Shown piece by piece: positions 13,395-45,106 of a stretch of 64,000 nucleotides of DNA. Every line of letters starts with the position of its first letter. Position 1 is the first letter of the stretch. A program made the translations under genes and the position numbers. This DNA comes from an uncultured Planctomycetales bacterium. GTDB lineage: Bacteria > Omnitrophota > Gorgyraeia > Zapsychrales > Zapsychraceae. The DNA is taken from assembly GCA_964535935.1 (NCBI GenBank), contig CAZHWM010000007.1, positions 37,708-101,707 of the forward strand. Reading direction: 5' to 3'. Under the pieces are notes generated by a model that saw only the letters and a list, made by a program, of their open reading frames with translations, did no database searches and was not told where the DNA came from.

Positions 13395-14774
13395 CTACTT
13401 TGTATCCGTTGGCAACTTGGGGGTAACTATATGGGGGGTAATAAACACTATTAAATCTTTTTTAGCTACAGAATTTTCTGTTTTTTGAAAAATAAGTCCT
13501 AAAACAGGGATACTTCCTAATAATGGAAATTTTTTCTTTACTTTTATCTTTTTACTCGTAATAAGCCCCCCGATAACAAGAGTATCCCCATCTTTAATCA
13601 TAACACGCGTCTCAGCCCTCTCCGTATTAACTAATGGAATCATTATATTTTCAAATGCTACCGAACCTGCCGTCTCGGATACCTCAGGAATCAAATCAAG
13701 AGTAACATAACCTGCATTATTAACATGAGGGGTAACCTGAAAGGTTATCCCTACAGGTCTATAACTTACTCCCACCCTCTTCAATTCTCCGGTCTCTTTA
13801 TTAGGCTCAAACTCCGGGATAGGGTAATCCACGGCCACTTTAATATTAGCCTGCTGGTTGTCCAAGGTCACTATTTTGGGGTTTGATAAAATATTTGTAT
13901 CCGTCCTGGATTTCAACATTTCAAGTACTGCCTGCAGTTGAGTAAAATTTAAGGTACCATATGTAAATTCGGTATTTGAACTACCTTCAGTAGTATCTGG
14001 CCCAACAAAAGGATCTGGTATATATTTATTGTCGGAGGATTTAGTAAACGGCCATACTGTAGGCCTCTGTGCCCCGGATAAGGTAACCCTAGCTGTCCAA
14101 TCTATTCCTAAATTCTCTGAATCATTTAAATCCGTTTGCATTATTTTTGCCTCAATCAATACCTGTGGAGTTACAGTATCCAATTTCTTAATAACAGACG
14201 CTATAAGTTGAAGTTTACGTTTTGTATCTGTAACAATCAGAGTATTTGTCCTTTCATCATAATTAACATTCCCTCGTTCAGATTTAATCTTATCTATAGA
14301 AGAGATAATATCTGAAGCCTTTGCAAAATTGAGTGTAAATGTCTGGGTCTCAAGGGGTTCCTGCTCCGCTAATATAGCAGCATCTTCTCTGCTTTTTTTC
14401 ATCTCCTTTACTGTCATAACTAAAATAATATTCCCTTTTTTTTCATAAGCATATCCATGTGTTTTAAGAATAACATCCAAGGCCTGATCCCATGGAACAT
14501 TCTCTAATTTTATGGTAATAAGTCCGGTAACCTCGGGGCTAGCCACTATATTCACTCCACTCTTTAACGATAATATTTTAAATACATTACGAATATCTGC
14601 ATCCCGTAAATCAAGACTAACATATCCTTCCTTTTTAGCCAAATCTTGTTGCGACTCTTCAGTCGAAGTATTTTTCTTATCCTTCCGTAAAACAGCTGTC
14701 TGTTGGGTATATCCTAAGGAAACGGAAACCATAAAATCAAAAACCATACTCAAAACAAAGAGCTTTTTTAACAT
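13395..14774 (-). CDS. pilQ: Type IV pilus secretin PilQ (compact form)
   Basis: 459 aa. Signal peptide, N0/N1-like domains, and a C-terminal secretin domain (VMIKDGDTLVIGGLI...FPLLGSIPVLGLIFQ...LIVFITPHIV). Confidence 0.9.
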   Translation of the reverse strand: MLKKLFVLSMVFDFMVSVSLGYTQQTAVLRKDKKNTSTEESQQDLAKKEGYVSLDLRDADIRNVFKILSLKSGVNIVASPEVTGLITIKLENVPWDQALDVILKTHGYAYEKKGNIILVMTVKEMKKSREDAAILAEQEPLETQTFTLNFAKASDIISSIDKIKSERGNVNYDERTNTLIVTDTKRKLQLIASVIKKLDTVTPQVLIEAKIMQTDLNDSENLGIDWTARVTLSGAQRPTVWPFTKSSDNKYIPDPFVGPDTTEGSSNTEFTYGTLNFTQLQAVLEMLKSRTDTNILSNPKIVTLDNQQANIKVAVDYPIPEFEPNKETGELKRVGVSYRPVGITFQVTPHVNNAGYVTLDLIPEVSETAGSVAFENIMIPLVNTERAETRVMIKDGDTLVIGGLITSKKIKVKKKFPLLGSIPVLGLIFQKTENSVAKKDLIVFITPHIVTPKLPTDTK

Positions 14775-14775
14775 C

Positions 14776-15234
14776 TTATTCTCCCTTTTTTAACTTTAAA
14801 TCAAATTTTTGTTTTCCCTTTCCCAGTAATACAGATTTAGCAGAGATATGCAAAACAACAAATGGCCCTATCTTATCACCCTTTTTCAAAACCTTACCAT
14901 TAATAATCGCAAGATTGGCGTTATCATCTACCCCCAACACAATCCCCTCAAGCACCAAATCAGTTAGTAACAAATTATCTTCATAAGTTATAATAATGCC
15001 ATTACTGTCTACCAATGGTAAAAAAGGATCTCGTTTGCCATGATCATCATAAACAAAATGTCGTTGCCCTCTCCCTTCAGAAATCTTATTTAAAACATTT
15101 TCTTCTCCGAAAGAGTTCCCTACCATTAAAACAAACACCCACATACATAAAAACAAATACAGGGACCATTCGCTATATAAGAATTGTCCTTTCCTCCCCA
15201 ATTGAGCTATATGGCATCTAAAATCCAATATCAT
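14776..15234 (-). CDS. pilP: PilP-like pilus assembly protein
   Basis: 152 aa. N-terminal hydrophobic anchor, RDPFLPL motif, then a beta-domain (LEGIVLG...AIINGKVLKKGDKIGPFVV). Located between pilO and pilQ. The start codon is uncertain because I see no clear RBS. Confidence 0.55.
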   Translation of the reverse strand: MILDFRCHIAQLGRKGQFLYSEWSLYLFLCMWVFVLMVGNSFGEENVLNKISEGRGQRHFVYDDHGKRDPFLPLVDSNGIIITYEDNLLLTDLVLEGIVLGVDDNANLAIINGKVLKKGDKIGPFVVLHISAKSVLLGKGKQKFDLKLKKGE

Positions 15235-15269
15235 AATAATTATTAATAATTTAAATATATTTTTTTATT

Positions 15270-15875
15270 TTATACTTTTTCATAAACAACTGCAAATAAT
15301 GTTAAAATAATATTATGTCGATTAGATTTATCATTTCCTGCTGTTATAGAAAATGAATCTACCTTCAACAATATATCTCCATCTTCTATTTTTGCAAGGA
15401 ACCTCCCAAAGTCATGATAACCAGCACTCGCTTGAATTAAAACTGGCACGGAAAAATATCTCTTACCCCCTGACTCCAACAAAACCTCTGCTGAATTACT
15501 ATCTCCTGTAATCCTTTCTATCCTGACATTATTCTCTTCTGCTATTATAGAGATATATTCTGTAACTAAATTAAGATCTTCTTTTGCCTTAATACCTGAT
15601 AACTCCAGCTTAAGCTTTTTTTGGAGAGACTCTAATTTTTTCTTATACGATGCAAAATTATTAATATCAATCTTTGCTCGCCTAATTTCATGTGACCTGC
15701 TCTTAATCTTTGAAGAAAGCGCTATCAATCCATTCACATGTGGTTGCATAAAAAGCAAATAATATACTGATAGCAGACAGAAAAGAACTCCTACAAACAG
15801 TATATAGCGGCTCCTAGCATCCAAATTCTCTAATAGTTCGACAATTTTGTCTGCTACATTACTTTTTTCTGCCAT
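15270..15875 (-). CDS. pilO: PilO-like pilus assembly protein
   Basis: 201 aa. Single TM, coiled coil, and a ferredoxin-like C-domain (AGYHDFGRFLAKIE). Position in the pilMNOPQ order supports the call. Confidence 0.7.
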   Translation of the reverse strand: MAEKSNVADKIVELLENLDARSRYILFVGVLFCLLSVYYLLFMQPHVNGLIALSSKIKSRSHEIRRAKIDINNFASYKKKLESLQKKLKLELSGIKAKEDLNLVTEYISIIAEENNVRIERITGDSNSAEVLLESGGKRYFSVPVLIQASAGYHDFGRFLAKIEDGDILLKVDSFSITAGNDKSNRHNIILTLFAVVYEKV

Positions 15876-16575
15876 GTTTTTTCTTCCTTCGGGAACGGCT
15901 TTTCTTTTTTTTCTTATTATTCTTTTTATCTTTTTGTCCCTTTATTTCTTGTTTATCTATCGGCCTAAATTCTTGTTTCAAACTAGCAACAATAGAAAAA
16001 TCGACCAATTCAGTACCATTAATTTGCCTGCGCGTAATAGAATCTATATCCATCTCTTGAAAATGTTTTAAAAAAGCATCCTGTTGTCTGAGATTGTGTG
16101 TAAATTCATGGATAGCAACAATCTGATTCTGTTGCCTTGAAATAGCGCTCCCTTCAATAGTAAATGTCTTTCCGTCTTCAAAAGCAATATGCCTTAACCA
16201 TACACCACGTGGAAGGCTATCACTAATTATATTTAATTTTTTCGCCCACAATATCCTGTCAGCATCTATTAATTTATCTACATCCTGCTTAATAGACTGT
16301 AATTTCCGTATTTCGGATATAATTTTATCCACCTTCTTTTTGGAAGGCTGAATAGATTCCCACTCCTTTTTAGTTTGCATATACCTTTTTTTAAGAGAAA
16401 TATGCTTAAATATTATAAAAATATGTATAGCTATTAAAAAAAGAAGAAGCCCTCCACCACCACCTATAATCACCTCTGGCGGGACATGAAAGCCCTTCGG
16501 CAAAATCCTTCGTTTTGGTTTTCTCCTTAAATCAGGAGGCGCTAAATTAATATCAATCATAATCGTAAAGGGCAA
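15859..16575 (-). CDS. pilN: PilN-like pilus assembly protein with polybasic C-terminal tail
   Basis: 238 aa. N-terminal IDINLAPP (PilM-binding INLLP-like motif), one TM, and a periplasmic domain. It ends KDKKNNKKKKKSRSRRKKKHGRKK and overlaps the pilO start by 17 nt. Confidence 0.75.
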   Translation of the reverse strand: MPFTIMIDINLAPPDLRRKPKRRILPKGFHVPPEVIIGGGGGLLLFLIAIHIFIIFKHISLKKRYMQTKKEWESIQPSKKKVDKIISEIRKLQSIKQDVDKLIDADRILWAKKLNIISDSLPRGVWLRHIAFEDGKTFTIEGSAISRQQNQIVAIHEFTHNLRQQDAFLKHFQEMDIDSITRRQINGTELVDFSIVASLKQEFRPIDKQEIKGQKDKKNNKKKKKSRSRRKKKHGRKK

Positions 16576-17620
16576 GTCCTAATGCTACTCCTATTTTAGG
16601 AGCCAATAGATTAATATCTTCTGACAATATATTCTCTGATATATCTATCTTATCCAATGGATTCCATATTTGAACTTTAACCTCAAGATGTCTCTCAAAG
16701 GCAGAACAAATACCATCTAACATACATCCCCCACCTGTCAAAAATAATTTCGTAACGGTCTTATTTTTTTCCCTCGAGAAGTAATTAAAAGATAAAGTTA
16801 ACTCCTGAACAAAATTTAATATAGCTGCTTCGGAAGCATTTACTATTTGTTCTCGTTTTTCACCCGGCGACTTCTTTAATCTCTCTGCCTCATGAAAACT
16901 TATTCCCAAAGCATTACTAATCCTTTTAGTTAATTCATCCCCGCCAATAAATATGTCTCTTATAAACCAAGGCATCCTGTCCACTAAAACAATCAAACTA
17001 CTCATAGAAGCCCCCATATCAAGTATAGCAAATGCTGCATCCTTGCGTTTGCTTTCTTCATCATCAGTATCCACACCTAATATATTAACCACATTAGCAA
17101 TAGCTACAGAATTAATTCCGATAAAATCAGGAGACAATCCCAAACTCTGAAGCATTTCAACTCGTCTATCTACTATCTCCTTTTTAGCTGCTGCGGCCAT
17201 AACATACATCTGTTTTCTATTATCCCCAGGGCTAATTATACAACAATCAATATAAACCTCATCCAAAGAAAAAGGGAAATATTTATCTGCTTCTATAGAG
17301 AACGATTTTTTTAATTCATCTAACGACATATTAGGCATATCAAGATAACGTATTAACGTCCCCTTGCCAAACACAGAAGTATAAATTCTTTTACATGGCT
17401 GCGTTAATTTGCTCATGATAGTCTTAACCGCTGAGGAAATATCCTTATCATGAATAGGTTCCATGGCCCAATTAATTAGTTTGAAATCTTCTCCTGAAAA
17501 TGCAAGCTCTACCATTTTGCAATCACCTGCACCAATATCAATACCAACAGACACTGTCCCCTGTTCTCCCATAACTAGCTTTTTTATCGTAGTAAAATAA
17601 TTAACCATTAAATTAGCCAT
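16553..17620 (-). CDS. pilM: PilM, actin-like ATPase of the type IV pilus alignment complex
   Basis: 355 aa. Actin/HSP70-fold phosphate loops (VGIDIGAGDCKMV, ILDMGASMSSL, LTGGGCMLDG). Confidence 0.9.
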   Translation of the reverse strand: MANLMVNYFTTIKKLVMGEQGTVSVGIDIGAGDCKMVELAFSGEDFKLINWAMEPIHDKDISSAVKTIMSKLTQPCKRIYTSVFGKGTLIRYLDMPNMSLDELKKSFSIEADKYFPFSLDEVYIDCCIISPGDNRKQMYVMAAAAKKEIVDRRVEMLQSLGLSPDFIGINSVAIANVVNILGVDTDDEESKRKDAAFAILDMGASMSSLIVLVDRMPWFIRDIFIGGDELTKRISNALGISFHEAERLKKSPGEKREQIVNASEAAILNFVQELTLSFNYFSREKNKTVTKLFLTGGGCMLDGICSAFERHLEVKVQIWNPLDKIDISENILSEDINLLAPKIGVALGLALYDYD

Positions 17621-17665
17621 AATATTATACCTATCGACCCAATTTCCTTAAATATACCTCTTTAA

Positions 17666-18070
17666 TTACCAACTTGTTATCCCACCAGTAGAAATAGAAA
17701 ATACTGCTGAACCTGATATACCAGGTCTTACTGGGGTGGCTGTGATAGTATAAAAATTACCATTCCCCCAATCACATGTATATAAAAACCCCATAATCTC
17801 CTTATCACAATAACTGTCCATTAAATAGGGGGGATCCGATTCAGTAAGAGCATCCTCACTTCTAGGATAACTGTTATGTGCTGTAAAATACGTCTCTGCC
17901 GCCACAGATATTGTCCTTAAAGTATTTTTGGCAAGGGCATCATTAGACTCCTTATATGCCCTTAATAGACCTGGAATTGCCACACTAGCCAATAAGGCAA
18001 TAATAGAAATAACTATCATAATCTCTACAAGAGTAAATGCTTTTTCCTCTCGTATTATACACATACTCAC
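17666..18070 (-). CDS. Type IV pilin paralogue (Ala at the -1 position of the prepilin site)
   Basis: 134 aa. Leader ...REEKA then FTLVEIMIVISIIALLA (F+1, E+5). The C-terminal Cys pair is YCDKEIMGFLYTC. Clearly paralogous to the upstream pilin (ATPV..G.SGS..F.I.TGG). Confidence 0.8.
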   Translation of the reverse strand: MSMCIIREEKAFTLVEIMIVISIIALLASVAIPGLLRAYKESNDALAKNTLRTISVAAETYFTAHNSYPRSEDALTESDPPYLMDSYCDKEIMGFLYTCDWGNGNFYTITATPVRPGISGSAVFSISTGGITSW

Positions 18071-18201
18071 ACTCCATATATTCTAAAAATTTACATATAA
18101 TATTTTTATCTATGCAAATTTTACCATACCTTTAATAATATAACATTAACTTATTAAAAAACTTAACATGACAAAAAATCATTATAATCTGATCCTTTTA
18201 A

Positions 18202-18231
18202 TAAAAAAGGGGCTGTATATAAACAGCCCCT
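18202..18231 (-). terminator. Rho-independent terminator after the first pilin gene
   Basis: Minus strand reads AGGGGCUGU-UUAUAU-ACAGCCCCU followed by UUUUUU, about 30 nt after the pilin stop. Confidence 0.7.
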
Positions 18232-18261
18232 ACCTTTAACAATACTTTAATAATTAACTTA

Positions 18262-18657
18262 TTAATTTAACCATACACCACCTGTTGTAATCTGAAATGT
18301 CTGAGAACCTGTAACCCCTTTATTAACTGGTGTAGCAGTTATAGTATAGCCGCCAGCATCCCATTGACATGTAATCTGAAATCCTGCCTTTGTAGTTCCA
18401 CAATATGATTCTGTTAAATAAGCTGGAGTTGCATCAGTAAGATCAGACTCTGCTGTAGGATATTGACCATTATTTGCTGTAGAATATGATTCTGCTGCTG
18501 TTGATATAGTACGTAAGGTACTCTTAGCAATAGAATCGTTGGATGCTACCTTTGCCCTTAACAACCCGGGAATTGCTATCATTGCTAAGACAGCAATAAT
18601 AGCTACAACAATCATAATCTCTACTAAGGTAAAACCTGATTTCTCTTTTAATCTCAT
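18262..18657 (-). CDS. pilA: Type IV pilin (probable major pilin)
   Basis: The internal ATG at 18655-18657, with RBS AAGGAAAGGAGAAAGAGG, gives MRLKEKSG then FTLVEIMIVVAIIAVLA (G-1, F+1, E+5). The Cys pair is YCGTTKAGFQITC. The ORF-track start at 18696 adds an unlikely 13-aa extension. Confidence 0.85.
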   Translation of the reverse strand: MRLKEKSGFTLVEIMIVVAIIAVLAMIAIPGLLRAKVASNDSIAKSTLRTISTAAESYSTANNGQYPTAESDLTDATPAYLTESYCGTTKAGFQITCQWDAGGYTITATPVNKGVTGSQTFQITTGGVWLN

Positions 18658-18915
18658 CCTCTTTCTCCTTTCCTTTACCAAAGAATAATTAATCATCCTT
18701 TAGTATCGGAACCGCTCAATAAAGATGTCTTTCTAGCATTTTTCATTATTATCTAATTAAAAATTATTATTACAGAACCCTATAATTATCTCTAAATTAT
18801 GCGGTTCCTATTTTTTATTTATTTTTAATTACTCTTCTATCTTGAACTATGATCCAGCAAATATTTTTTATTTCACCTCCTTCCCTGCTAAATTTAATCA
18901 TAGTCACAAGTAAAC

Positions 18916-18947
18916 AAAAAAAGCCTATCCCACTCATAGGGATAGGC
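18916..18947 (-). terminator. Intrinsic terminator, candidate expression platform of the c-di-GMP riboswitch
   Basis: Minus strand reads GCCUAUCCC-UAUGAGU-GGGAUAGGC followed by UUUUUUU, 27 nt downstream of the aptamer and about 260 nt upstream of the pilin ATG. Confidence 0.75.
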
Positions 18948-18974
18948 ATAATACTTCAACTTCTTTTATTTTTA

Positions 18975-19049
18975 CGGCAACTGGCTACCCTGAAGATAAT
19001 TATTTCAGGGCCCTATAGCTTTGTGTCCCACCCTTACGAATGGTTTACC
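18975..19049 (-). promoter_or_regulatory. c-di-GMP-I (GEMM-I) riboswitch aptamer
   Basis: Minus strand reads GGUAAACCAUUCGUAAGGGUGGGACACAAAGCUAUAGGGCCCUGAAAUAAUUAUCUUCAGGGUAGCCAGUUGCCG. This aligns with the V. cholerae Vc2 aptamer GGCAAACCAUUCGAAAGAGUGGGACGCAAAGCC...GGUAGGUAGCGGGGUUACCG. Shared features are a GNRA-capped hairpin CCAUUC-GUAA-GGGUGG, the GGGAC(R)CAAAGC core, a second hairpin CCCUGAA/UUCAGGG, and a closing helix GGUAA/UUGCC. Confidence 0.8.
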
Positions 19050-19081
19050 TTTTTCGTTAATTCTGTTAATTGTCCATTGAA

Positions 19082-19110
19082 AGTATAACATGCTATATCA
19101 ATGTTGTCAA
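19082..19110 (-). promoter_or_regulatory. Sigma70 promoter driving the riboswitch-pilin leader
   Basis: Minus strand reads TTGACA (19110..19105), a 17-nt spacer, then TATACT (19087..19082), about 25 nt upstream of the aptamer. Confidence 0.6.
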
Positions 19111-19271
19111 TGTCATCACCTATAACATAAAAATCAAGCCCCCTAGATCATAATCTAAAAATTTGTAATATATTAAAAATGTCCCTAAAACAATAACACA
19201 AATAATAAACTAATAAAAAATCCTTTAATAATTTTGTATTCAATCAGTTGCATGATCTACTGAATTTTCAT

Positions 19272-20309
19272 CTATTTTTGTATTTCTAATAGTTCTTTTT
19301 TTAAAGTCTTATTTTCATTATGAATAATAGATAAATTCTTTTTAAGACTATCCACATCCTCGCCTACACTTACAAGATTTTCTGTCTCCTCTATCTTTTT
19401 TTTTAGTTTTGTTATTAATTCATTTAATTCACGTTTTCGTGTTCTTAATTTTTCAATTTCCATCTCTATCTTTGACAAACTAACATTATTTGTCTCTCGT
19501 AAAGCCTTTATCTGTGACTGTAAAATTTTTTCATCGTCTAATGCTGTTTTATATTCCTTCTCCAATTCAGCAAGAGTGTTCTTTAATATCTTATTTTCTC
19601 CCTCTAGGTCATCAAGCTCTCTTAAAGGAACAGCATATTTCCTACAAATTAATTGTTTTTCTCTTTTTAGTGAAATTGTATTCTTTTTTCTTTTCTCTAT
19701 AGACTCAATAAGTCGTTGCTTTTCTTCTATAAATTTATTATTTTCATCTGAAGAAAGAATTTTTATTTCCTTTTTTATTGTTTCAACATCCTCTTGCAAT
19801 TTCTTCGCTTGTTTTTTTAACTTATCAATCTGTTGTTGATTAGCATTTATCTTAGCTATCAGAGATAATCTTTCTTTGTCTAACCCAGAAACATTTTGAT
19901 TTACTGTTGGTAACTTCTTTTCTAAAGAATTACTTTCTTCTAATTTATCAGACAGATAACTTGAAAGTTTATTCTTCTCTTTTATGAGAATTTCTTTCTC
20001 TTGCAAAAGTTTGTCATATCTTTTTTTTAAATTATCTATCTGCTCTTGAAATATTTTTATTTTCGTAGAGAGCCATTTATTACGCTGCTTTACCTTATCG
20101 GCACTCTCCTTAAGACTCCGTAGACTCTGTTCTAAAAGAGCCATAATAGAAACATGATGCCTTGAAATTTGAGAAAAGGAAGATGTGCTCCATGAAAAAA
20201 CAACGATACAAACAACCGACATAAAATAAATTCTTTTTATACCCTTTATAAATAAAAAAGCGAAAATATTTCTATTTCTTCTATATATTTTATTTCTTAT
20301 TATAGACAT
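19272..20309 (-). CDS. Membrane-anchored/secreted long coiled-coil protein, unknown function
   Basis: 345 aa. N-terminal hydrophobic segment (MSVVCIVVFSWSTSSFS), then about 300 aa of K/E/L/Q-rich heptad-like sequence. I recognise no catalytic motif. Located between pilC and the pilin leader. Confidence 0.6.
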   Translation of the reverse strand: MSIIRNKIYRRNRNIFAFLFIKGIKRIYFMSVVCIVVFSWSTSSFSQISRHHVSIMALLEQSLRSLKESADKVKQRNKWLSTKIKIFQEQIDNLKKRYDKLLQEKEILIKEKNKLSSYLSDKLEESNSLEKKLPTVNQNVSGLDKERLSLIAKINANQQQIDKLKKQAKKLQEDVETIKKEIKILSSDENNKFIEEKQRLIESIEKRKKNTISLKREKQLICRKYAVPLRELDDLEGENKILKNTLAELEKEYKTALDDEKILQSQIKALRETNNVSLSKIEMEIEKLRTRKRELNELITKLKKKIEETENLVSVGEDVDSLKKNLSIIHNENKTLKKELLEIQK

Positions 20310-20322
20310 CTTATCTTCCTTT

Positions 20323-21540
20323 TTATTTTATCAGACTAGTAATATTCATTATAGGCATAAATAAAGCTATTACAATAAAACCTATCATGATACCAAGCAC
20401 TCCTATTATAAGGGGTTCTATGATACTGGTAAGACCCTCTACTGCCGCATCCACCTGATCATCGTAAAACTCTGCTATCTTAAGAAGCATCTTATCCAAC
20501 TGCCCTGATTTTTCGCCTATAGCTATCATACGTGTCACCATGGAAGGAAACACTGGACTCTTTGCTAGTGGGGCTGCAAGACTTTCCCCCTCACGGACAC
20601 TATTTTTTACCTCTTCCACCACATTCTCTAAAAGTCTATTTCCTATAGTTCTTAAAAGGATGTCAAATGATTCTAATATTGGGACACCGCTCTGTAGTAA
20701 TGTAGCTAGAGTCCGGCAAAATCTACTTATAGCTACTTTACGTAAAAGCTCACCAAATAATGGAAGTTTAAGTATCGCGCTATCTATCGCTAACGCCCCT
20801 TTATCTGTCTTATACCATTTTCTTAATCCAAATACAACTATACTAATGCCTCCTACAAAAAACAAAAGTTGCCGTTTCAAGACATCGCTTATAGTAATAA
20901 GTAGTTTTGTCATAACTGGCAACTCTTGATCAAATGAACTATATATTTGAGCAAAAGTAGGAACAACCTTTACCAAGAGTCCTACCGTTATAAGAATAGC
21001 CATAGACACTACAACTGCCGGATACATCATAGCAGATTGTACCTTACGTTTTAACTTAAGGCTTTTCTCCATATAAGCAGCAACTCGATCTAAGACTATA
21101 TGTAATACTCCTCCTGTCTCCCCAACCTTCACCATATTTACAAAAAACACATCAAATACCCGAGGATATTTAGCAAAAGCAGCTGAAAGACTGCTGCCTG
21201 TTTGAATATCATCATGCACATTGTTAAGCACTTTTTTAAACACCGGATGGTTAATCTGCTCACGTAACGCATCTAAGGCCTGTACAATAGGAATACCTGC
21301 CTCTATCATAGTAGCCAATTGCCTACAAAATATAACTATCTCATCCGGTTTAATCTTCTTATTCTTAAATAGGCTACCCTCACCCCCCTTTGCTGAAGCG
21401 CCTTTTAGCTCTTCTACAGATATAATAATAAGATTCCTCTTTCTGAGTTCTTCTACAACAGCAGACTTACTTTCAGCTGCTATTTTACCAATTATAGTCT
21501 TAGCCTCGTTATTTTTAGCTGTATATTTAAAAGTGGCCAT
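20323..21540 (-). CDS. pilC: Type IV pilus platform protein PilC (GspF family)
   Basis: 405 aa. Duplicated GspF domain (FCRQLATMIEAGIPIVQAL and FCRTLATLLQSGVPILESF) with three TM segments. Confidence 0.95.
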   Translation of the reverse strand: MATFKYTAKNNEAKTIIGKIAAESKSAVVEELRKRNLIIISVEELKGASAKGGEGSLFKNKKIKPDEIVIFCRQLATMIEAGIPIVQALDALREQINHPVFKKVLNNVHDDIQTGSSLSAAFAKYPRVFDVFFVNMVKVGETGGVLHIVLDRVAAYMEKSLKLKRKVQSAMMYPAVVVSMAILITVGLLVKVVPTFAQIYSSFDQELPVMTKLLITISDVLKRQLLFFVGGISIVVFGLRKWYKTDKGALAIDSAILKLPLFGELLRKVAISRFCRTLATLLQSGVPILESFDILLRTIGNRLLENVVEEVKNSVREGESLAAPLAKSPVFPSMVTRMIAIGEKSGQLDKMLLKIAEFYDDQVDAAVEGLTSIIEPLIIGVLGIMIGFIVIALFMPIMNITSLIK

Positions 21541-21561
21541 CCAGTCTCTCCTAAATAAATA

Positions 21562-23274
21562 TTATTCATCTGCTGTAACACGTATAACCTCTTCTAGTGT
21601 TGTAAACCCTGCTATACATTTAGACATCGCATCATCCCATAAAGTAGCCATTTCTTTATTTTTACGTGCATATCCTTTTATTTCGTCTGAAGACTTTCCT
21701 CTTAATAAAAGATTTCTAATTTCGTCATCTACATCTAACACTTCTGTAACACACATCCTTCCTAGATATCCAGTATTACGACAAACATCACAGCCTTCCC
21801 CCTTATATAAAGTTATCCCCGATTTAAATTTATCTGTTAGATTCAATTTCTCTAATATTAGGTCTGTATCTTTTCTCTCTTGTTTGCAATGGGGGCATAT
21901 TCTTCGACACAATCTCTGTGCACTAATACATACAATACTTGATGCCACAAGAAATGGCTCTACCTGCATGTCTATCAACCTAGTCAAAGCACCGGCAGCA
22001 TCATTTGTATGCAAAGTAGAAAAAACTAATTGTCCTGTAAGTGATGCCTTAATTGCTATATCTGCAGTCTCATTATCCCTTATTTCTCCTACCATGACAA
22101 TATCTGGACTCTGCCGTAATATAGCACGCAAGCCCTCTGCAAAAGTTAAACCTATTTCTGGCCTGGTCTGTATCTGTGTAAGACCTTCTATCAAATATTC
22201 CACCGGATCTTCTACTGTTATAATATTTTTGTCCACTGTATTCAACTCGTTTATAATTGAATATAAAGTAGTGGACTTTCCACTCCCAGTAGGGCCAGTA
22301 ACTAAAATCATCCCAAACGGCTTCCTGATGGCCTCCTGAAGTATCGCCAAAGCATTCTCCGATATACCAAGTTCACTTAGGCCAACAGAAAGATTACCTT
22401 TATCAAGCACACGCATAACAACCTTCTGCCCAAATGTTGTAGGCAACAATGATACACGAAAATCAATCTCTTTATTTGATATACGCATCTTAAACCTACC
22501 ATCCTGTGGAATCTGGTTAACAGTAATATCCAATTTTGACATAATTTTTATTCTCACAATAACTGCATTCTGATTTTCTTTAGGTATTGTTAAAACATCA
22601 TGTAAGACGCCATCAACCCGAAACCTAACCCTCACGGCATCTGCCATGGGTTCTATATGTATATCAGAAGCTCGCTGCTTTACTGCCTCTTTTACTATAA
22701 GGTTGACCATACGTACAATAGGGGCTCGCTCACTTTCATCAACAACATTATCATCTGCAGTTTCGTCATGATCACTTACAATCTCAAAATCATCTATTTT
22801 TATATCCTTGCTTATATCTGTCACAGTTGTCTCAGTGGGGATACCGTAATAGTTATCAATAGTCTTAGATATCTCGGAATCTGTACTCATCACCACATCA
22901 ATATCTTTACCTGTGATATTATGCAAATCATCCGTAACAAATACATTTAATGGATCAGACATAGCAATAGTTATAGTATTATCTAATGCCGATAAGGGGA
23001 CAATATGGTACTGCCTTGCAACATTTTCTGGAATAATTTCTTGAAGAGAAGGATCTATCTTATATTTCTTAAGATTAATAAAAGGCACATTAAGCTCACG
23101 AACTAGCAAACTCAACAAATCTTCCTCATTTATGAGCCCTCGCTCTAACAATGCCTTATCAAAACTTATTGCCTTCTGTTCAGCAAGTCTCTGGACATCC
23201 TGTATATCCTTTTCTTTCAATTGCTTTGAGGCAATCAGGGCCTTTATAATTTTATCTTTTAATGTCTCCGCCAT
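21562..23274 (-). CDS. pilB: PilB/GspE-family pilus extension ATPase (copy 1)
   Basis: 570 aa. T2SSE_N region, Walker A GPTGSGKST, Asp box, Walker B IVMVGEIRD, His box, and a tetracysteine CPHC...CDVC. Confidence 0.95.
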   Translation of the reverse strand: MAETLKDKIIKALIASKQLKEKDIQDVQRLAEQKAISFDKALLERGLINEEDLLSLLVRELNVPFINLKKYKIDPSLQEIIPENVARQYHIVPLSALDNTITIAMSDPLNVFVTDDLHNITGKDIDVVMSTDSEISKTIDNYYGIPTETTVTDISKDIKIDDFEIVSDHDETADDNVVDESERAPIVRMVNLIVKEAVKQRASDIHIEPMADAVRVRFRVDGVLHDVLTIPKENQNAVIVRIKIMSKLDITVNQIPQDGRFKMRISNKEIDFRVSLLPTTFGQKVVMRVLDKGNLSVGLSELGISENALAILQEAIRKPFGMILVTGPTGSGKSTTLYSIINELNTVDKNIITVEDPVEYLIEGLTQIQTRPEIGLTFAEGLRAILRQSPDIVMVGEIRDNETADIAIKASLTGQLVFSTLHTNDAAGALTRLIDMQVEPFLVASSIVCISAQRLCRRICPHCKQERKDTDLILEKLNLTDKFKSGITLYKGEGCDVCRNTGYLGRMCVTEVLDVDDEIRNLLLRGKSSDEIKGYARKNKEMATLWDDAMSKCIAGFTTLEEVIRVTADE

Positions 23275-23333
23275 AATAAAAAATAAATTTTTAACTGATT
23301 AAATATCAGGTTAAAAAATATAAAAAGATACTT

Positions 23334-25091
23334 TCATCCCTCAACTCTATGAAGTGGATCATCTGGAGCGGTTACCCTTAAGACTTCCTCAAGAGTTGTC
23401 AAGCCTTTAGCAGCCTTAGCCAATCCATCCTCCCGCATAGTCTTCATACCCTCCGCACGAGCTACTTGTTTAATCTCAAATTCACCTGCCCTTTGTAATA
23501 TATATTCTTTTATTCGTGCAGATAAAACACAAATTTCAGTAATGCCTACCCGCCCTTTATATCCTGTATTAAAACATTCATCACATCCTCTGCCTTTATA
23601 AAATTGGATATCGCCTTCCTTTAAATATTGTGCAATGCCTATCCTTTTAGCGATATCTTCCGGCACATTATATAGTTCTTTACATTTAGGACATATCCGC
23701 CTTAAAAGCCTCTGGGCAACAATAGCAAGTACAGATGAACATATAAGAAAAGGTTCTATTCCCATATTCATCATACGTATAACCGAGCCTGCCGCTGTTG
23801 TCGTATGCAATGAACTTAAAACCAAATGTCCTGTAAGTGCTGCCTTTACAGCTATATCTAATGTCTCTGAATCCCGTATCTCACCTATCATAATTATATC
23901 AGGGTCCTGCCTTAAAATCGAACGTAAACATACAGGGAAGGTTAACCCCATAGAAGATTTTATATTTACCTGATTAAGCCCTGGCATCTCATATTCAACA
24001 GGATCCTCTACTGTAACGATATTTTTCTCCGGGGAATCTACAAACTTAAGAATAGAATATAGAGTAGTGGTCTTACCACTACCTGTTGGGCCACAGGTTA
24101 AAATCATACCATGTGGTTTTACTACACACTCCTTAAGTCGTTTCATAGATTCTGGTTCAAACCCTAATTTATCTATATTAAGCACTGAACTATCTTGATC
24201 AAGCACTCGTAATACAATCTTTTCGCCCAAAACGGTAGGGAGGACATTAACTCTAAAATCAACTTCATGATCCCCTGAAATAATCATCTTAAACCTTCCA
24301 TCCTGTGGGATCCTGTGTTCAGAGATATCCAAATTCGATATTACCTTAAACCTCGAAATAAGAGGGGAAAGAAGGACTTTCGCCATTCGGTCTATTTCCC
24401 GTATCACACCGTCCACACGGTATCTGATACGCATAGACTTCTCTAGCGGCTCTATAAATACATCACTTGCTCCTGCCATAACTGCCTGTTTGATAATTGT
24501 ATCTGCCAATTTAATTATAGGTGCTTCCTCTGTTAACTCCTCCACTATTTCTTGACTTTGAGAAGAATCTATATCCTTAACCAATTCAAGATCCTCTGTA
24601 TCCCTAATATCCTGCATGATCTCATCGAATGTTTCCGTTTTTTCATCAGAAGCTTGCTCTTGCTTATAATAACTATCCAAAACAGCCTCTATTTCCTTAG
24701 GGGAGCTAATGACAGGAATTATTGAATATCCTGTAAGTGCTTTTAAATTGTCTATTGCAAAAATATTAAGAGGGTCAGCCATCGCCACAGTCAAATGCTC
24801 CCCTATAAGAGAAATGGGCACAAGCTGATAATTACGACACACCTTAGAGGGGATAATTTTTATTATAGAAGAGTCCAATTTAACACAGGAAACCTTGATA
24901 ATAGGGATACCAAGTCCCTCACTCAATACCTGTCTGAGAGTATCCTCATCTACTAATTTCATCTTCAAGAGAATCTTCCCAAGTTCTTCTCCTGTCTTAG
25001 CCTGCTCATCCAATGCACGACTCAGGTCCTCAGAAGATATAATACCATCACGAATAAATATAGCTTTTAAGCGATCGTTTAAAGATGCCAT
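23334..25091 (-). CDS. PilB/GspE-family ATPase (copy 2) with MshEN-like N-terminus
   Basis: 585 aa. N-terminal RLKAIFIRDGIISSEDLSRALDEQ-AKTGE-ELGKILLKMKLVDEDTLRQVL, Walker A GPTGSGKTT, Walker B IIMIGEIRD, and CPKC...CDEC. Confidence 0.93.
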   Translation of the reverse strand: MASLNDRLKAIFIRDGIISSEDLSRALDEQAKTGEELGKILLKMKLVDEDTLRQVLSEGLGIPIIKVSCVKLDSSIIKIIPSKVCRNYQLVPISLIGEHLTVAMADPLNIFAIDNLKALTGYSIIPVISSPKEIEAVLDSYYKQEQASDEKTETFDEIMQDIRDTEDLELVKDIDSSQSQEIVEELTEEAPIIKLADTIIKQAVMAGASDVFIEPLEKSMRIRYRVDGVIREIDRMAKVLLSPLISRFKVISNLDISEHRIPQDGRFKMIISGDHEVDFRVNVLPTVLGEKIVLRVLDQDSSVLNIDKLGFEPESMKRLKECVVKPHGMILTCGPTGSGKTTTLYSILKFVDSPEKNIVTVEDPVEYEMPGLNQVNIKSSMGLTFPVCLRSILRQDPDIIMIGEIRDSETLDIAVKAALTGHLVLSSLHTTTAAGSVIRMMNMGIEPFLICSSVLAIVAQRLLRRICPKCKELYNVPEDIAKRIGIAQYLKEGDIQFYKGRGCDECFNTGYKGRVGITEICVLSARIKEYILQRAGEFEIKQVARAEGMKTMREDGLAKAAKGLTTLEEVLRVTAPDDPLHRVEG

Positions 25092-25165
25092 TATGATTTT
25101 TTATGGTAGGCAATTAAGTAGTTGTTCCTAATTTTAAATAATAACTAAAATTATAACAAAACTTA

Positions 25166-25609
25166 TCATATATAATATTTATCTATAGCCTGTCTTATCT
25201 CTGTAGCAGTGGCAACAAACACCTGAACAATACAGCCAGTAATCACCTCCACATCCTCTACCGCCTGCATATTTAAAGGATTCGACATAGCCAAAGTAAG
25301 ACTTTTACCAATCTTATCAATTGGAACAAGACAATACTGCTGGCATAAGTTCTTAGGCACAGAACCTATTACTTCCGGATCTATTTCATAATTTGCTAAC
25401 GGAAGATACGGAAAACCATACTGACATGTCAGTGCCTGAGCAATATCCTTCTCAGTACAAAACTTCAACTCAACCAAAACCTCTCCTATAAGCCCCCCCT
25501 GCCTCTTCCAATATTCTAGGGCATTATTTAACTGCTCATGGGTAATAACACCCCTCTCTATCAGAAGCTCCCCTATCTTCTTTTTGGTTGTTCTTGTATA
25601 ACTCTTCAT
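25166..25609 (-). CDS. Stand-alone PilB/GspE N-terminal domain protein (MshEN-like + T2SSE_N, no ATPase)
   Basis: 147 aa. KIGELLIERGVITHEQLNNALEYW-KRQGG-LIGEVLVELKFCTEKDIAQALTCQ is followed by a T2SSE_N-type segment (YGFPYLPL...LVPIDKIGKSLTLAMSNPLNMQAVEDVEVITGCIV). Confidence 0.75.
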   Translation of the reverse strand: MKSYTRTTKKKIGELLIERGVITHEQLNNALEYWKRQGGLIGEVLVELKFCTEKDIAQALTCQYGFPYLPLANYEIDPEVIGSVPKNLCQQYCLVPIDKIGKSLTLAMSNPLNMQAVEDVEVITGCIVQVFVATATEIRQAIDKYYI

Positions 25610-25705
25610 TTCCCTAGTTTAAATCAAATTTATAATATATGCGTATTCTACAATAGTTAAACAAATATAACAATTATTTTATTATTCTAATTATTCTCTC
25701 AACGC

Positions 25706-26767: not shown

Positions 26768-26956
26768 AAAAACCTTTCAAAATACAATACTTCTACTACC
26801 TCTATCAATGCTATTATAATTTATTATAATATCTACATAAACAGTGCACAAACACCCATCTTATAGTGATAAAAAATAATTTCATTACATAAAATAGACT
26901 AAATAATATTATATACTCTGCATTATTCCCTTTAATCTTTCAATAGCTAAATAAAA

Positions 26957-27589: not shown

Positions 27590-27659
27590 ATTGCACTCAT
27601 AAAAATCTAATTACATAAATCAACAAAATAAATAATGCCATTAGTAAGCTCTATAATAA

Positions 27660-31862: not shown

Positions 31863-31989
31863 CTTTATTTATTATTAAAACTAACCTTACCCCCGTTCTA
31901 TATCTCTATAAAACTTATATATTTTATATATATTATAATAAATATCCCCACCCCTTTCAACAAGGTTTTCCCTTCATCCCATCTAATGG

Positions 31990-32967
31990 TTATGAATATA
32001 AATATTTATCAAGTTCATCTTCCTGTGGCAGCGGACTTTGTTGGGCATATCCAAATGCCTGTTTTATCTCTCTATCAATAGCAGTAGCTATCTCATCAAG
32101 CTGAGGACTTGTTGCAATATCATTTTTTAAAATATAATTAACTAACACCTTGACAGAGTCTCTGTTATTAGCCTCATCCCTATCCTCTGGCTTACGATAT
32201 TGTTGTCTTAATGGATCTCCAGCGCCCGAATGAGCACGCCATCTCTGCACTAGACATTCAAGGAAAAACGGCCCTTTCCCACCCCGTGCACGTTCAATTA
32301 CCTCACGTGACTGACTATAAACCTCAAGAACATCCATCCCGTCTATACGCCTAGCTGGCAAATCAAAGGCTGATGCCCTTTTATAAATATTATCATCTAC
32401 CTGTCTTGCTGAAATATGCGAACATACGGCATACTTATTATTCTCGCACACAAATATAACTGGCAAATTCATCATCTTAGCCAAATTCATACTCTCATAT
32501 AATATACCCTGTTCACATGCAGCATCACCAAAAAAAGCTACCGCAACTAAACCCTTACCCTGCCTCTTATATGCAAAACCAGCACCTACTGCATGGGGGA
32601 TACCACCAGCAACTATAGCAGAACACCCTAAATGTCCCACAGAGATATCTATCAAATGCATTGAACCACCTCGACCCTTGGCACAACCTGTCCTTTTACA
32701 ATAAAGTTCTGCCATCATTGCTTTAAGGTCTCCTCCTTTGGCTAAGTAATGTGCATGGCTGCGATGATTACTAAAAATATTATCCTCTCTTCTCAAATTA
32801 GCACACACGCCAACCGCAACCGCTTCCTGCCCAAGCGACAGGTGTACAGGAGTTCTCATCTCATCTTCATGATAATGTTTTTCTATCTCCAACTCTGTCT
32901 TCCGTATTTTTAAAAGAGAAGCATATAATTCCAAAATCTTTTCTTTAGAAATATTATGATCCACCAC
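31990..32967 (-). CDS. Thiamine-diphosphate-dependent dehydrogenase E1 component, alpha subunit (no beta subunit adjacent)
   Basis: 325 aa of the E1-alpha family (HLSLGQEAVAVG, GRGGSMHL, ThDP-binding FFGDAACEQG...NNKYA). GTG start with AGGGAGAAG upstream. Confidence 0.85.
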   Translation of the reverse strand: MVDHNISKEKILELYASLLKIRKTELEIEKHYHEDEMRTPVHLSLGQEAVAVGVCANLRREDNIFSNHRSHAHYLAKGGDLKAMMAELYCKRTGCAKGRGGSMHLIDISVGHLGCSAIVAGGIPHAVGAGFAYKRQGKGLVAVAFFGDAACEQGILYESMNLAKMMNLPVIFVCENNKYAVCSHISARQVDDNIYKRASAFDLPARRIDGMDVLEVYSQSREVIERARGGKGPFFLECLVQRWRAHSGAGDPLRQQYRKPEDRDEANNRDSVKVLVNYILKNDIATSPQLDEIATAIDREIKQAFGYAQQSPLPQEDELDKYLYS

Positions 32968-41713: not shown

Positions 41714-41744
41714 TCTTATTAAAATAATATATATTATAATCCCT

Positions 41745-42683: not shown

Positions 42684-42777
42684 AACATCACCTATTATAA
42701 ATTTTAAGGGTTTATAATATTAAAATTTTTTATATTTTACCATAGGATTTATAAGTTTCTATGGAAAAGCCATTAAT

Positions 42778-43794
42778 TCATATCTGGTTCTCATCAAAAA
42801 CACAAACCCTGTTTCTCCCTAATTTTTTGGCGCGATACAATGCCCAATCTGCCTTATCTATAAGAGTTTCCTCTTCCTTTCCATCGTAAGGAAAAGTGGA
42901 TATCCCAATACTTAAAGTAACCTTCACTACAGCATCATAGACCCTAATTTTAGAGGCCTCTACAGCCTTTCGTATACGTTCTGCAACATACATAGCTCCT
43001 TGCCTATCTGTATCAGGCAAAATAATACAAAATTCCTCTCCTCCATAACGACCTGCAATATCTATTTCGCGAATATTTGTCTTAATAATAGAACCTACTT
43101 CTCTCAATATTTTATCCCCTGTCAAATGTCCATACTTATCATTACATTTTTTGAAAAGATCAATATCTACCATAAGAAACGACAATTTTATTCGTCGCAT
43201 ACTAGAACGCTTTATTTCCTCCCTAAATCTCGATAATGCATATCTTCTGGTATTTACTCCTGTGAGATTATCTGTAATAGCTACCCTCTCTATTTTTTGA
43301 TACAAACTAACTCTACGTAATGCTAAGGCAAATTGATGTGCCAAAATAACAATCTTATCTTCATCTTCTGGGGAGGCTCCTCTAATCAATAACCTTCCTA
43401 TCTGCTCCTCCCTTGCCCTAAGTAAGAAGACAAATTCTCCTTTACCCGCATGTATATCTGACTTATTATCTGTAACTGGAATAAATCTACATTCCCTAAA
43501 ACGGACATGTTCTTTTAATTTTTGTTTAAAAATATTAAAGGCTTCTTGTTGACTAATACTCTTAGTAATATCTTTCATCAACTCATACAAAACAAAGATC
43601 TCATTAGCTTCTGTCTGTAATTCTACCTTACGTGCGTCAAGTTCTTTTTTCTTGGCCTTCAAAACATAACAACGATGAGACACATTCTTAAGTTGTTGAT
43701 GTAAATCAAGTTCAAGATTTACAATCGTATTCTTACAAATAAAAAAAATTACTGCTATATAAGCAAAGACTATTATAAAATATAAAAAAATCAT
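42778..43794 (-). CDS. Membrane-anchored diguanylate cyclase (GGDEF, with RxxD I-site)
   Basis: 338 aa. N-terminal TM, coiled coil and a sensor-like region. The GGDEF domain has REID-IAGRY-GGEEF, an I-site 5 residues upstream of the active site. Confidence 0.9.
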   Translation of the reverse strand: MIFLYFIIVFAYIAVIFFICKNTIVNLELDLHQQLKNVSHRCYVLKAKKKELDARKVELQTEANEIFVLYELMKDITKSISQQEAFNIFKQKLKEHVRFRECRFIPVTDNKSDIHAGKGEFVFLLRAREEQIGRLLIRGASPEDEDKIVILAHQFALALRRVSLYQKIERVAITDNLTGVNTRRYALSRFREEIKRSSMRRIKLSFLMVDIDLFKKCNDKYGHLTGDKILREVGSIIKTNIREIDIAGRYGGEEFCIILPDTDRQGAMYVAERIRKAVEASKIRVYDAVVKVTLSIGISTFPYDGKEEETLIDKADWALYRAKKLGRNRVCVFDENQI

Positions 43795-43816
43795 ATAAAG
43801 ACCCTATAATAAGCTA

Positions 43817-45106
43817 TCAACAAATACATATTCTGTTTTTCCCATGCCGCTTAGCCTTATACATTGCAATATCTGCTTTATGTATCAAATCTTCTCGAGT
43901 TTTAGCATCTCTAGGGAACATGGCGATCCCAATAGATACCGTGATATGTGTCTTTTCCCTACGTAACACAATCTCCTCTTCCGCTATTCTGAGACGTATT
44001 CCTTCCGCCATACGCAAAGCCGTTTCCTGTCTACATTCAGTAATAATAACACAAAACTCTTCACCTCCATAACGACAAACCAAAGTCCCTGGTCTATTAA
44101 ATAATGACGATAATATCCTTCCAACTGCCTTCAATACAATATCTCCCGCAATATGTCCATATCTATCATTATATTGCTTAAAATTATCCAAATCCAACAT
44201 AAGAAACGCCATACTCCTTTGTCTACGTATATGTCTTAAAACCTCTTCCCCTAATCTGTCCATACAATAGTGTCTCAAATACAATCCTGTAAGACTATCT
44301 CGTGTTGCAAGCTGGCCGACCCTTTCATATAACTGGGCATTTTCAATAGCAATAGCGCCAAGATCTCCCACAGTAGTCAAAAATCTCAAATCATCTGTGG
44401 TGAAATAATGTTTAATATGACTATCCACCCTTAAAATACCTAAAGCCTTATTGGCAGATATCAACGGGGTGGTTATCAAAGAACAAATTCTCCGTGCCGT
44501 ACCTAAACAATTAATATCAAACCGAAAATCCGTTCTAACATCCTCCACAAGCAATGATTGCATAGTCCTTGCCACCCAATGGTCAAAAATGTCCCCCTGT
44601 TTTTCTTTTATATTAACCTTCATTCTTCCCTTATGAGAATAAGATATACCTAACTCTCCTGTCCTAGAATGAAATAGATATAATATAATAGTAACATTCT
44701 CTCCAAAATGTTTATTGAGTTCTACAGAAATAGCCTTTGATACATCATCCAAAGAAAGGCACATACTTAACTTTTCCGCAAGTCCTTTGAGTTGAAAATA
44801 ATGAATAATCTTCTCCCCAAAAGAATTTATCGCTGTTTCTTCTTTTCTAATCTCAATTTCAAGAAGATTAATCTCTTCGTGACAATGTTGAATTTTAAGC
44901 AAAATTTCTTTACGTGTCTCATGGAAACGAACATGAAGAGGGAAAAGAAGAATAAGACAAGAAGCGAATCCTAAAAATAAAGCAATAAATGCCTTTGCAT
45001 CGAATACCGTAGCATAGACAAAAAAAAGTACAGCAATAAATATCAAAATAACTGATATTACTACAGGATGAGATTTAAACAATGGTTTTCTCTGTGTCCT
45101 TATCAA
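43817..45106 (-). CDS. Membrane GAF-GGDEF diguanylate cyclase (no I-site)
   Basis: 429 aa. Two N-terminal TMs, a GAF-like domain (LLVEDVRTDFRF...ALGILRVDS...AIAIENAQLYERV), and GGDEF with RPGT-LVCRY-GGEEF, where the RxxD position lacks Asp. The ORF start overlaps the upstream ATPase gene by 32 nt, so the true start may be internal. Confidence 0.9.
   Translation of the reverse strand: MIRTQRKPLFKSHPVVISVILIFIAVLFFVYATVFDAKAFIALFLGFASCLILLFPLHVRFHETRKEILLKIQHCHEEINLLEIEIRKEETAINSFGEKIIHYFQLKGLAEKLSMCLSLDDVSKAISVELNKHFGENVTIILYLFHSRTGELGISYSHKGRMKVNIKEKQGDIFDHWVARTMQSLLVEDVRTDFRFDINCLGTARRICSLITTPLISANKALGILRVDSHIKHYFTTDDLRFLTTVGDLGAIAIENAQLYERVGQLATRDSLTGLYLRHYCMDRLGEEVLRHIRRQRSMAFLMLDLDNFKQYNDRYGHIAGDIVLKAVGRILSSLFNRPGTLVCRYGGEEFCVIITECRQETALRMAEGIRLRIAEEEIVLRREKTHITVSIGIAMFPRDAKTREDLIHKADIAMYKAKRHGKNRICIC

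Follow-up and report, generated by a model that had tools for sequence, protein, structure and literature searches.

A type IVa pilus locus conserved across Candidatus Omnitrophota carries a predicted c-di-GMP-I riboswitch ahead of its likely major pilin gene

The stretch of DNA analysed here, in the following called the window, comprises 64 kb of contig CAZHWM010000007.1 and belongs to a Candidatus Omnitrophota genome. Omnitrophota are uncultured and many of them are thought to be host-dependent; surface organelles are probably central to their lifestyle. Between positions 13395 and 45106 of the window every gene lies on the minus strand. This region encodes a pilus cluster, an RNA of the class I cyclic di-GMP (c-di-GMP) riboswitch type ahead of a pilin gene, three proteins with MshEN domains and two GGDEF proteins. 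An earlier, sequence-only reading had proposed that these parts form a three-layer c-di-GMP circuit controlling a hybrid pilus machine. Its inventory of parts is present in full, each part where that reading had placed it. The features are as follows (nt, nucleotides).

13395..14774, minus strand: PilQ secretin (Pfam Secretin, Secretin_N and STN; TIGR02515, 316 bits, cut-off 284)
14776-15234, 15270-15875, 15859-16575 and 16553-17620, minus strand: pilP-like gene, pilO, pilN and pilM (Pfam PilM_2, 162 bits, PilN and PilO; weak PilP-like match)
17666..18064, minus strand: pilin2, 132 amino acids (Pfam N_methyl; gene call from the identical contig L081)
18208..18231, minus strand: intrinsic terminator after pilin1 (nine-pair stem, then TTTTT)
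18262..18657, minus strand: pilin1, 131 amino acids, likely major pilin (N_methyl and TIGR02532; gene call on L081)
18766..18794, minus strand: weak equivalent of promoter P2, TAGAGA, 17 nt, TG-AATAAT (9 of 12 consensus matches)
18916..18947, minus strand: terminator of the expression platform, GCCUAUCCC/GGGAUAGGC followed by seven U (hairpin 18947..18923)
18972..19058, minus strand: c-di-GMP-I (GEMM-I) aptamer (Rfam, own covariance model, covariation)
19082..19110, minus strand: promoter P1, TTGACA, 17 nt, TG-TATACT (11 of 12 matches)
19272..20309, minus strand: membrane-anchored coiled-coil protein, 345 amino acids (weak coiled-coil matches only)
20323..21540, minus strand: PilC platform protein (Pfam T2SSF, 238 bits)
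21562..23274, minus strand: PilB-a, 570 amino acids, degenerate MshEN motif (Pfam T2SSE, 443 bits; MshEN, 81 bits)
23334..25091, minus strand: PilB-b, 585 amino acids, partial c-di-GMP motif RLKAIFIRDGIISSEDLSRALDEQ (Pfam T2SSE, 464 bits; MshEN, 71 bits)
25166..25609, minus strand: MshEN-only protein, 147 amino acids (Pfam MshEN, PF05157, 74 bits)
25706-26767 and 26957-27589, minus strand: GspK-like and GspJ-like minor pilins (Pfam T2SSK_1st and N_methyl; weak T2SSJ)
42778-43794, minus strand: GGDEF protein, 338 amino acids, with a single N-terminal hydrophobic segment and a REID I-site (PF00990, 157 bits)
43817-45106, minus strand: TM-GAF-GGDEF protein, 429 amino acids, with RPGT in place of RxxD (PF00990, 156 bits)

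The pilQPONM genes, the two pilins, pilC, the two extension ATPases and the GspK/J-like genes which had been read from the sequence are all recovered by Pfam and NCBIfam models. Among them are the type IVa components PilB, PilC, PilM, PilN, PilO and PilQ as well as prepilins with the cleavage/methylation motif. The label of a hybrid machine is not justified. The secretin passes the PilQ model and reaches only 245 bits against the cut-off of 351 of the GspD model. Both ATPases, which are 44% identical to each other, score best as PilB, under the equivalog cut-off (612 and 647 against 675.65 bits); the GspE model gives them 598 and 561 bits with a cut-off of 630. The platform protein lies under the NCBIfam cut-offs of both PilC and GspF (395 against 424 bits for GspF). 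The GspK-like and GspJ-like proteins stay below theirs as well (94 against 130 and 36 against 65 bits). None of the type II secretion equivalogs GspD, GspE, GspF, GspJ and GspK is thus found above cut-off in the cluster. Furthermore, the GspJ/K-like genes adjoin the cluster only in the lineage of the window, i.e. in the near-identical contigs L081 and L082 and in the 95%-identical sister L084, and at none of the 80 species-level loci described below. Minor pilins of the GspH-K type belong to the normal equipment of type IVa pili. The locus is a type IVa pilus cluster, conserved across Omnitrophota.

Relatives were collected by a scan of one genome per species with the MshEN-only protein, and 80 loci were kept with 10-kb flanks each. 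For the MshEN-only protein 2852 homologues were found, the best of which measure about 150 amino acids, are 63-77% identical and are assigned to Omnitrophica/Omnitrophota wherever a name is given. At least 494 species genomes encode a relative of it. Searches of the 80 species-level loci by tblastn with the window proteins reveal the same order, MshEN-only, PilB-b, PilB-a, PilC, pilin(s), PilMNOP(Q), wherever the contig reaches, the slot of the riboswitch being between pilC and the pilin gene. Identity to the window proteins amounts to 63-74% for MshEN-only, 57-70% for PilB-b and 50-72% for PilC; the MshEN-only protein is at least as well conserved as the motor proteins. Our own covariance model, built from four aptamers, places an aptamer on the coding strand 160-560 nt 5' of the pilin1 homologue at 34 of the 40 loci which contain a pilin. 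It is also present at the truncated ends of three more loci and in L084 and L085. The pilin1 homologues which follow the aptamer in relatives are 50-64% identical to that of the window. A pilin without an aptamer occurs solely in L075-L080, which are the most distant loci. Since the order is identical in 80 species-level relatives, the grouping of pilus, MshEN and riboswitch is not due to chance. The co-occurrence of riboswitch, stand-alone MshEN gene and duplicated pilB, which the sequence-only reading had left to comparative genomics, is clear across these loci. A further constant is the slot between PilC and the riboswitch. It is always occupied by a coiled-coil protein, in the window one which combines a hydrophobic N-terminal segment with an extended coiled coil (19272-20309); the sequence is only 22-31% identical and matches no family.

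Several lines of evidence identify the RNA. The window aptamer scores 102.9 bits with our own model, and the orthologous aptamers of L029, L047 and L065 reach 58-60 bits with the canonical family RF01051 (gathering threshold 35). The two-hairpin fold is supported by covariation. Over 40 distinct sequences, 98.1% of the cells are paired and both partners vary in 8 of 19 pairs, in an alignment which was fitted to the model and thereby favours this result; none of 500 shuffles and no slid version of the alignment matched the observed values. Aligned to the Vc2 aptamer of Vibrio cholerae and in its numbering, the ligand contacts are G20, A47 and C92. Their equivalents are G in 42 of 42 model hits, A in 39 and C in 39, the three exceptions being the weakest hits, and the C22:G45 pair next to the contacts covaries to U:A. 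The position which defines the GGC variant of this class was inferred from the consensus of the RF03167 model, the name GGC presumably denoting positions 20, 47 and 92. Where the variant model has a G (consensus GCGAA), the cmscan alignment gives an A in the window (GACACAAAGC), as in canonical A47, and the same A stands in 39 of 42 relatives. Because the A47-type contact is kept, the orthologues match RF01051 and covariation supports the fold, we assign the RNA to the canonical c-di-GMP-I aptamers, for which binding of c-di-GMP is predicted.

Some loci depart from the common pattern. L057 has tandem aptamers (15773-15878 and 15960-16067) ahead of the pilin gene, and L025 has an additional aptamer (16525-16620) 3 kb 5' of the pilin, where it precedes other genes. 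In the aptamer-less loci L076, L077 and L080 a consensus promoter lies about 220-240 nt before the pilin gene and is followed by a long leader with a AAAGGAGG element. A different regulatory RNA could reside in these leaders; in L080, the only aptamer-less locus scanned, Rfam at gathering thresholds gave no other known RNA.

The pilin unit of the window is arranged in the order P1, aptamer, intrinsic terminator, weak P2, pilin1, terminator. P1 is the best promoter-like site within 13000-28000 and is kept 6-36 nt 5' of the aptamer in most relatives. No sigma-54 promoter was found in the pilin leader, which was read by eye. A strong terminator (18231..18208) directly follows pilin1 and makes it essentially a one-gene unit. 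Most likely the switch gates only pilin1, and pilin2-pilMNOPQ would receive some read-through at most. Of the earlier assignment, the GEMM-I aptamer ahead of the pilins therefore stands, on Rfam, covariation and contact residues, and the suggested reach to pilMNOPQ is made unlikely by the terminator after pilin1. Alignment of the regions between terminator and pilin shows a second promoter, P2, in most relatives: TTGACA, 16-18 nt, TAnnAT, usually with an extended -10 TG. It lies 3' of the riboswitch terminator, its distance to the pilin start being almost uniform (about 110-160 nt) and that to the aptamer variable (56-281 nt). In the window, where P2 ends 109 nt before the ATG, and in the 95%-identical sister species the -35 element is lost and the -10 element kept. 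Transcription from P2, strong in relatives and weak in the window, would escape the switch, and the riboswitch would gate only the extra transcripts from P1. Since the P2 of the window is without a -35 element, pilin expression is expected to depend more strongly on the riboswitch here than it does in most relatives.

Two details of this unit may be added. The perfectly complementary 8-mers GGAACCGC (18808-18801) and GCGGUUCC (18715-18708) flank the weak P2 and are both kept in the sister L084; because the pair flanks P2, both arms would be contained in P1 transcripts alone. L047 has another complementary pair, of 9-mers, at similar positions. As to the prepilins, the leader of pilin1 reads MRLKEKSG followed by FTLVE, with the standard Gly before the cleavage site, and pilin2 has Ala instead of the usual Gly at position -1 (REEKA followed by FTLVE).

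The terminator of the expression platform lies 9-39 nt 3' of the aptamer in 31 of 33 leaders (the window and 32 relatives) and has no nucleotides in common with it. Its 5' arm and loop (18946..18932) are complementary to the P1a hairpin region of the aptamer (19041..19027). In the window this duplex amounts to -16.9 kcal/mol as compared to a mean of -5.9 for random 24-mers. In 26 of 29 leaders, that of the window among them, it surpasses 95% or more of the random 24-mers drawn from the same locus, and the minimum-energy fold of the full window leader contains the antiterminator. Without ligand, the P1a region and the terminator's 5' arm and loop would pair to form an antiterminator, and transcripts from P1 would reach pilin1. 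With c-di-GMP bound, the aptamer would be locked, the terminator would form and P1 transcripts would end. High c-di-GMP would hence mean less transcription of the major pilin. As the ligand would lock P1a in the aptamer and free the terminator arm, we predict a switch that is OFF with ligand, and regard this direction as fairly likely. The nearest known counterpart is Cd1 (Cdi-1-3) ahead of the flagellar flgB operon of Clostridioides difficile, which likewise combines a class I aptamer with an intrinsic terminator, controls an organelle of motility and of the cell surface, and in which the ligand promotes termination (PMC6366702). In contrast to Cd1, the target is here a single type IV pilin gene, a second promoter follows the terminator and the OFF direction is a prediction.

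On the protein side, PF05157 is matched by PilB-a, the MshEN-only protein and PilB-b. Two proteins exceed the cut-off (38 bits) of NF053729, the NCBIfam model of the 53-residue c-di-GMP motif, namely MshEN-only with 65.1 bits and PilB-b with 49.6 bits; PilB-a does not match. The MshEN consensus consists of two tandem copies of RLGxx(L/V/I)(L/V/I)xxG(L/V/I)(L/V/I)xxxxLxxxLxxQ (PMC5013675). We checked the motifs residue by residue in 72-80 orthologues per protein, and in none of the three proteins were two consensus copies found. The MshEN-only protein keeps Gly3 and Gln24 of both half-sites, invariant or nearly so, together with the hydrophobic positions. PilB-b keeps Arg1 and Gln24 of motif 1, and in PilB-a both motifs are degenerate with little retained. 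The relaxed pattern of PMC5013675 fits motif 1 of the MshEN-only protein and nothing else. Among solved structures, the MshEN-only protein is matched best by GSPII-A of Thermus PilF, a close structural homologue which is a non-binder of c-di-GMP (PMC12002112), and homology is therefore insufficient to predict binding. Judged by these motifs, binding of c-di-GMP by the MshEN proteins is possible, with roughly even chances. The MshEN-only protein and PilB-b may thus act as c-di-GMP receptors on a two-ATPase motor. The MshEN-like motifs which had been assigned to one PilB and to a free protein are borne out by NF053729; the receptor role is left in doubt by their degeneracy.

Compared with MshEN of Vibrio cholerae (PDB 5HTL), the family is the same (PF05157/NF053729), with two 24-residue half-sites and a 5-residue spacer (PMC5013675). 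However, the best copy of the window is a free 147-residue protein without an ATPase domain, in which other residues stand for the two stacking arginines and Lys stands for Gly10 of motif 2. Thermus thermophilus PilF resembles the locus in having several MshEN/GSPII modules per pilus motor, with consensus-like and degenerate copies mixed; of its three GSPII domains, A is non-binding and B and C bind (PMC12002112). Its modules are fused in one polypeptide, whereas here they are distributed over three proteins, four in about half of the relatives, two full ATPases among them. Between PilB-a and PilC, 37 of the 80 loci carry a second MshEN-only gene (e.g. L035 14184-14642), which shares 31-46% identity with the first. 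The window does not have this gene, the gap between PilB-a and PilC being 21 nt. Cyanobacterial CdgR was considered as a precedent for a small free receptor and rejected, since it is of ComFB type and not MshEN. Two features are of particular interest for biochemistry, the highly conserved free MshEN protein, whose gene heads the motor operon, and the fixed pair of PilB proteins.

The GGEEF, DxLTG and ND motifs are legible in the translations of both cyclases. REID stands five residues before GGEEF in the 338-residue protein, and RPGT is found in the 429-residue protein, which agrees with the claim of two membrane GGDEF proteins, one with and one without an RxxD I-site. From these motifs both enzymes probably make c-di-GMP. 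The distance of about 17 kb from the pilus genes had also been given correctly. A functional link does not follow from it, as the position of the cyclases is not conserved and unrelated genes lie between, namely those for a TonB-dependent receptor, an M54 peptidase, transfer-messenger RNA (tmRNA), sugar-nucleotide enzymes, LptD and a ROK kinase. No synteny between cyclases and pilus cluster was found in relatives, and already in the sister L084, with an MshEN-only protein 95% identical, the upstream context differs from that of the window. What links the cyclases to the pilus is the common genome only.

In 75 relatives, the gene directly 5' of the MshEN gene is either an open reading frame (ORF) of RodA size (about 370-440 amino acids), confirmed as rodA after mreBCD-pbp2 in L035 and L085, or one for a degenerate HAMP-GAF-GGDEF protein. 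The latter (480 amino acids; L035 8536-9951) has a GDHEF/AEHEF site and no RxxD, occurs in about 31 of the 75 and is not in the window; stop and start codons of this gene and the MshEN-only gene sometimes overlap. We rejected the possibility that the window cyclases correspond to these operon-adjacent GGDEF proteins, since the latter are degenerate and only 24-35% identical. In L055 (13919-18963), a REC-GGDEF protein with GGEEF and an RCVD I-site is encoded in the operon between PilB-a and a second MshEN-only gene, along with a 1383-residue protein with a degenerate N-terminal GGDEF domain (AGDEF). The recurrent GGDEF genes are circumstantial support for c-di-GMP signalling at the pilus machine in the phylum, not for a role of the two enzymes of the window. 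Other signalling genes stand near the cluster elsewhere. L084 has a CheR-CheY-CheA/CheW cluster (1-3566) about 6 kb 5' of the pilus genes, beyond the peptidase; in the window this place is taken by the tmRNA gene and an E1 dehydrogenase. In L085 a PAS hybrid histidine kinase, a CBS protein and a REC protein lie directly 5' of the MshEN gene.

Taken together, we hold it moderately probable that the window contains a type IVa pilus locus with its major pilin behind a c-di-GMP-I OFF switch, with the MshEN-only protein and PilB-b as possible receptors, and with cyclases linked by the common genome only. Of the proposed three-layer circuit, the parts and their co-conservation are confirmed; protein reception, the hybrid character of the machine and the cyclase linkage are not established. 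As the riboswitch is predicted to be OFF with ligand, the layers do not have to share one direction of action. All mechanisms involved are of known kinds and their arrangement is new; a search of the literature found no description of a pilus/riboswitch system in Omnitrophota. The account makes a testable prediction for the phylum, a class I riboswitch by which c-di-GMP probably turns the major pilin off, opposite to the best-studied pilin riboswitch, that of C. difficile.

Several points weigh against this account. In the MshEN-only family, position 1 is never occupied by Arg: motif 1 has Q, H or K there and motif 2 has L; moreover, Lys usually takes the place of Gly10 in motif 2. PilB-b carries Lys or Gln instead of Gly3 in motif 1, and its motif 2 is degenerate, with E, K and G at key positions. 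The direction of switching is modelled. Shuffling of the terminator arm and comparison of fold energies gave no significant result (median z -0.7). The pyrimidine-rich arm pairs nearly anywhere in a G-rich aptamer, and this test was replaced by the duplex test against random genomic 24-mers. The terminator is already part of the full-length minimum-energy fold in 29 of 30 leaders, all of them relatives, the window being the exception, and any switching in relatives would therefore be kinetic. With P2 located beyond the riboswitch terminator, only a small share of pilin expression may depend on the switch in most relatives. Finally, phosphodiesterase, PilT and PilD were not found in the window, so that the circuit cannot be closed from its sequence. 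Here the sequence-only reading was right in noting their absence. When the main ORFs of the minus strand and two of the plus strand, all of at least about 95 amino acids and with a few housekeeping genes excepted, were scanned with Pfam, no EAL, HD-GYP, PilZ, PilT or prepilin peptidase (PilD) was found in the 64-kb window. At the 80 relative loci there was no third PilB-like ATPase match within 10 kb which could represent PilT; PilD was not searched for there.

The most serious alternative, to which we give somewhat less than an even chance, is that the RNA is the sole c-di-GMP sensor of the locus. The MshEN-only protein and the N-domains of the PilB proteins would then be structural or assembly modules, and the nearby GGDEF proteins would serve other targets. 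It draws on the degenerate motifs, whose deviations are conserved among orthologues, on the non-binding of the best solved match, PilF GSPII-A, despite its homology (PMC12002112), and on the unconserved position of the cyclases. Against it stand the margin by which two proteins pass NF053729 and the (near-)invariant Gly3 and Gln24 of both half-sites in the MshEN-only family. Moreover, PilF GSPII-C binds despite deviations from the consensus, according to PMC12002112 and our own reading of the alignment, and GGDEF-domain genes recur at the pilus operon.

As to the direction of the switch, the OFF reading has to be set against an ON switch, in which c-di-GMP would block termination and raise pilin expression. 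The precedent is Cdi-2-4 of C. difficile, a riboswitch directly ahead of the major pilin gene (pilA1) of a type IV pilus cluster, whose assembly genes are reached by partial read-through; through this switch c-di-GMP induces type IV pilin genes (PMC6366702). The ligand-free minimum-energy folds of the relatives, which hold the terminator as if termination were the default, point the same way. Cdi-2-4 differs in having a class II aptamer and a Gram-positive host without secretin. Against an ON switch, the terminator of our leaders begins past the aptamer and shares no nucleotides with it, so that the bound aptamer cannot directly sequester it. The conserved complementarity joins the 5' arm of the terminator to the aptamer core; the ligand would remove this competitor and favour termination. 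In addition, the class I c-di-GMP riboswitches of C. difficile are reported to be mostly OFF switches (bioRxiv 10.1101/617340). We consider an ON switch unlikely.

Still less likely is the view that P1, aptamer and terminator constitute a separate small-RNA gene with the short RNA itself as functional product, for instance a c-di-GMP-stabilised small RNA or a ligand buffer, the pilin being expressed mainly from P2. Two near-consensus promoters are conserved, P2 lies beyond the terminator and keeps a fixed spacing to the pilin, and the terminators are strong. A precedent exists in Vc2/tfoY of V. cholerae, where a class I OFF switch has promoters within and downstream of the aptamer which drive tfoY, so that part of the expression bypasses the riboswitch, and where a short aptamer-containing RNA from P1-Vc2 accumulates (bioRxiv 10.1101/617340). 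Vc2 differs in that it appears to act on translation and RNA stability without a clear terminator, and in that its target is a regulator and not a pilin. The small-RNA view has difficulty in explaining why the aptamer stands directly 5' of the pilin in the same orientation at 34 of 40 loci. The conserved antiterminator complementarity implies regulated read-through, and with a P2 devoid of its -35 element in the window and its sister, read-through from P1 should matter here.

A combined proposal seems more improbable again: the riboswitch RNA would act partly as a buffer or sensor small RNA serving a ligand pool of only tens of molecules, or by promoter occlusion, and not as a simple cis switch, and the MshEN-only protein, without both arginines, would be a trans-acting adaptor which sets the activity or composition of the two-PilB motor. 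If this were true, adaptor and two-PilB motor could substitute for a missing PilT.

Cyclic GMP-AMP (cGAMP)-type aptamers carry A20. That the aptamer is a c-di-GMP-I-GGC variant or a cGAMP-type GEMM-Ib RNA with a ligand other than c-di-GMP is very improbable although RF03167 (c-di-GMP-I-GGC) is the top Rfam family of the window aptamer (64.1 bits, gathering threshold 59, a second family of clan CL00126 also exceeding its own threshold there), since the diagnostic position is A and not G in the window and in 39 of 42 relatives, G20 is G in every hit and the orthologous aptamers match RF01051 best. For riboswitch annotation this means that an Rfam call of the GGC variant can be a canonical aptamer.

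The remainder of the window consists of housekeeping genes. The tmRNA gene between the cyclases and the pilus cluster is full-length (31464-31862, minus strand, 185 bits), and the plus-strand ORF 31818-32081, which overlaps it, is probably spurious.

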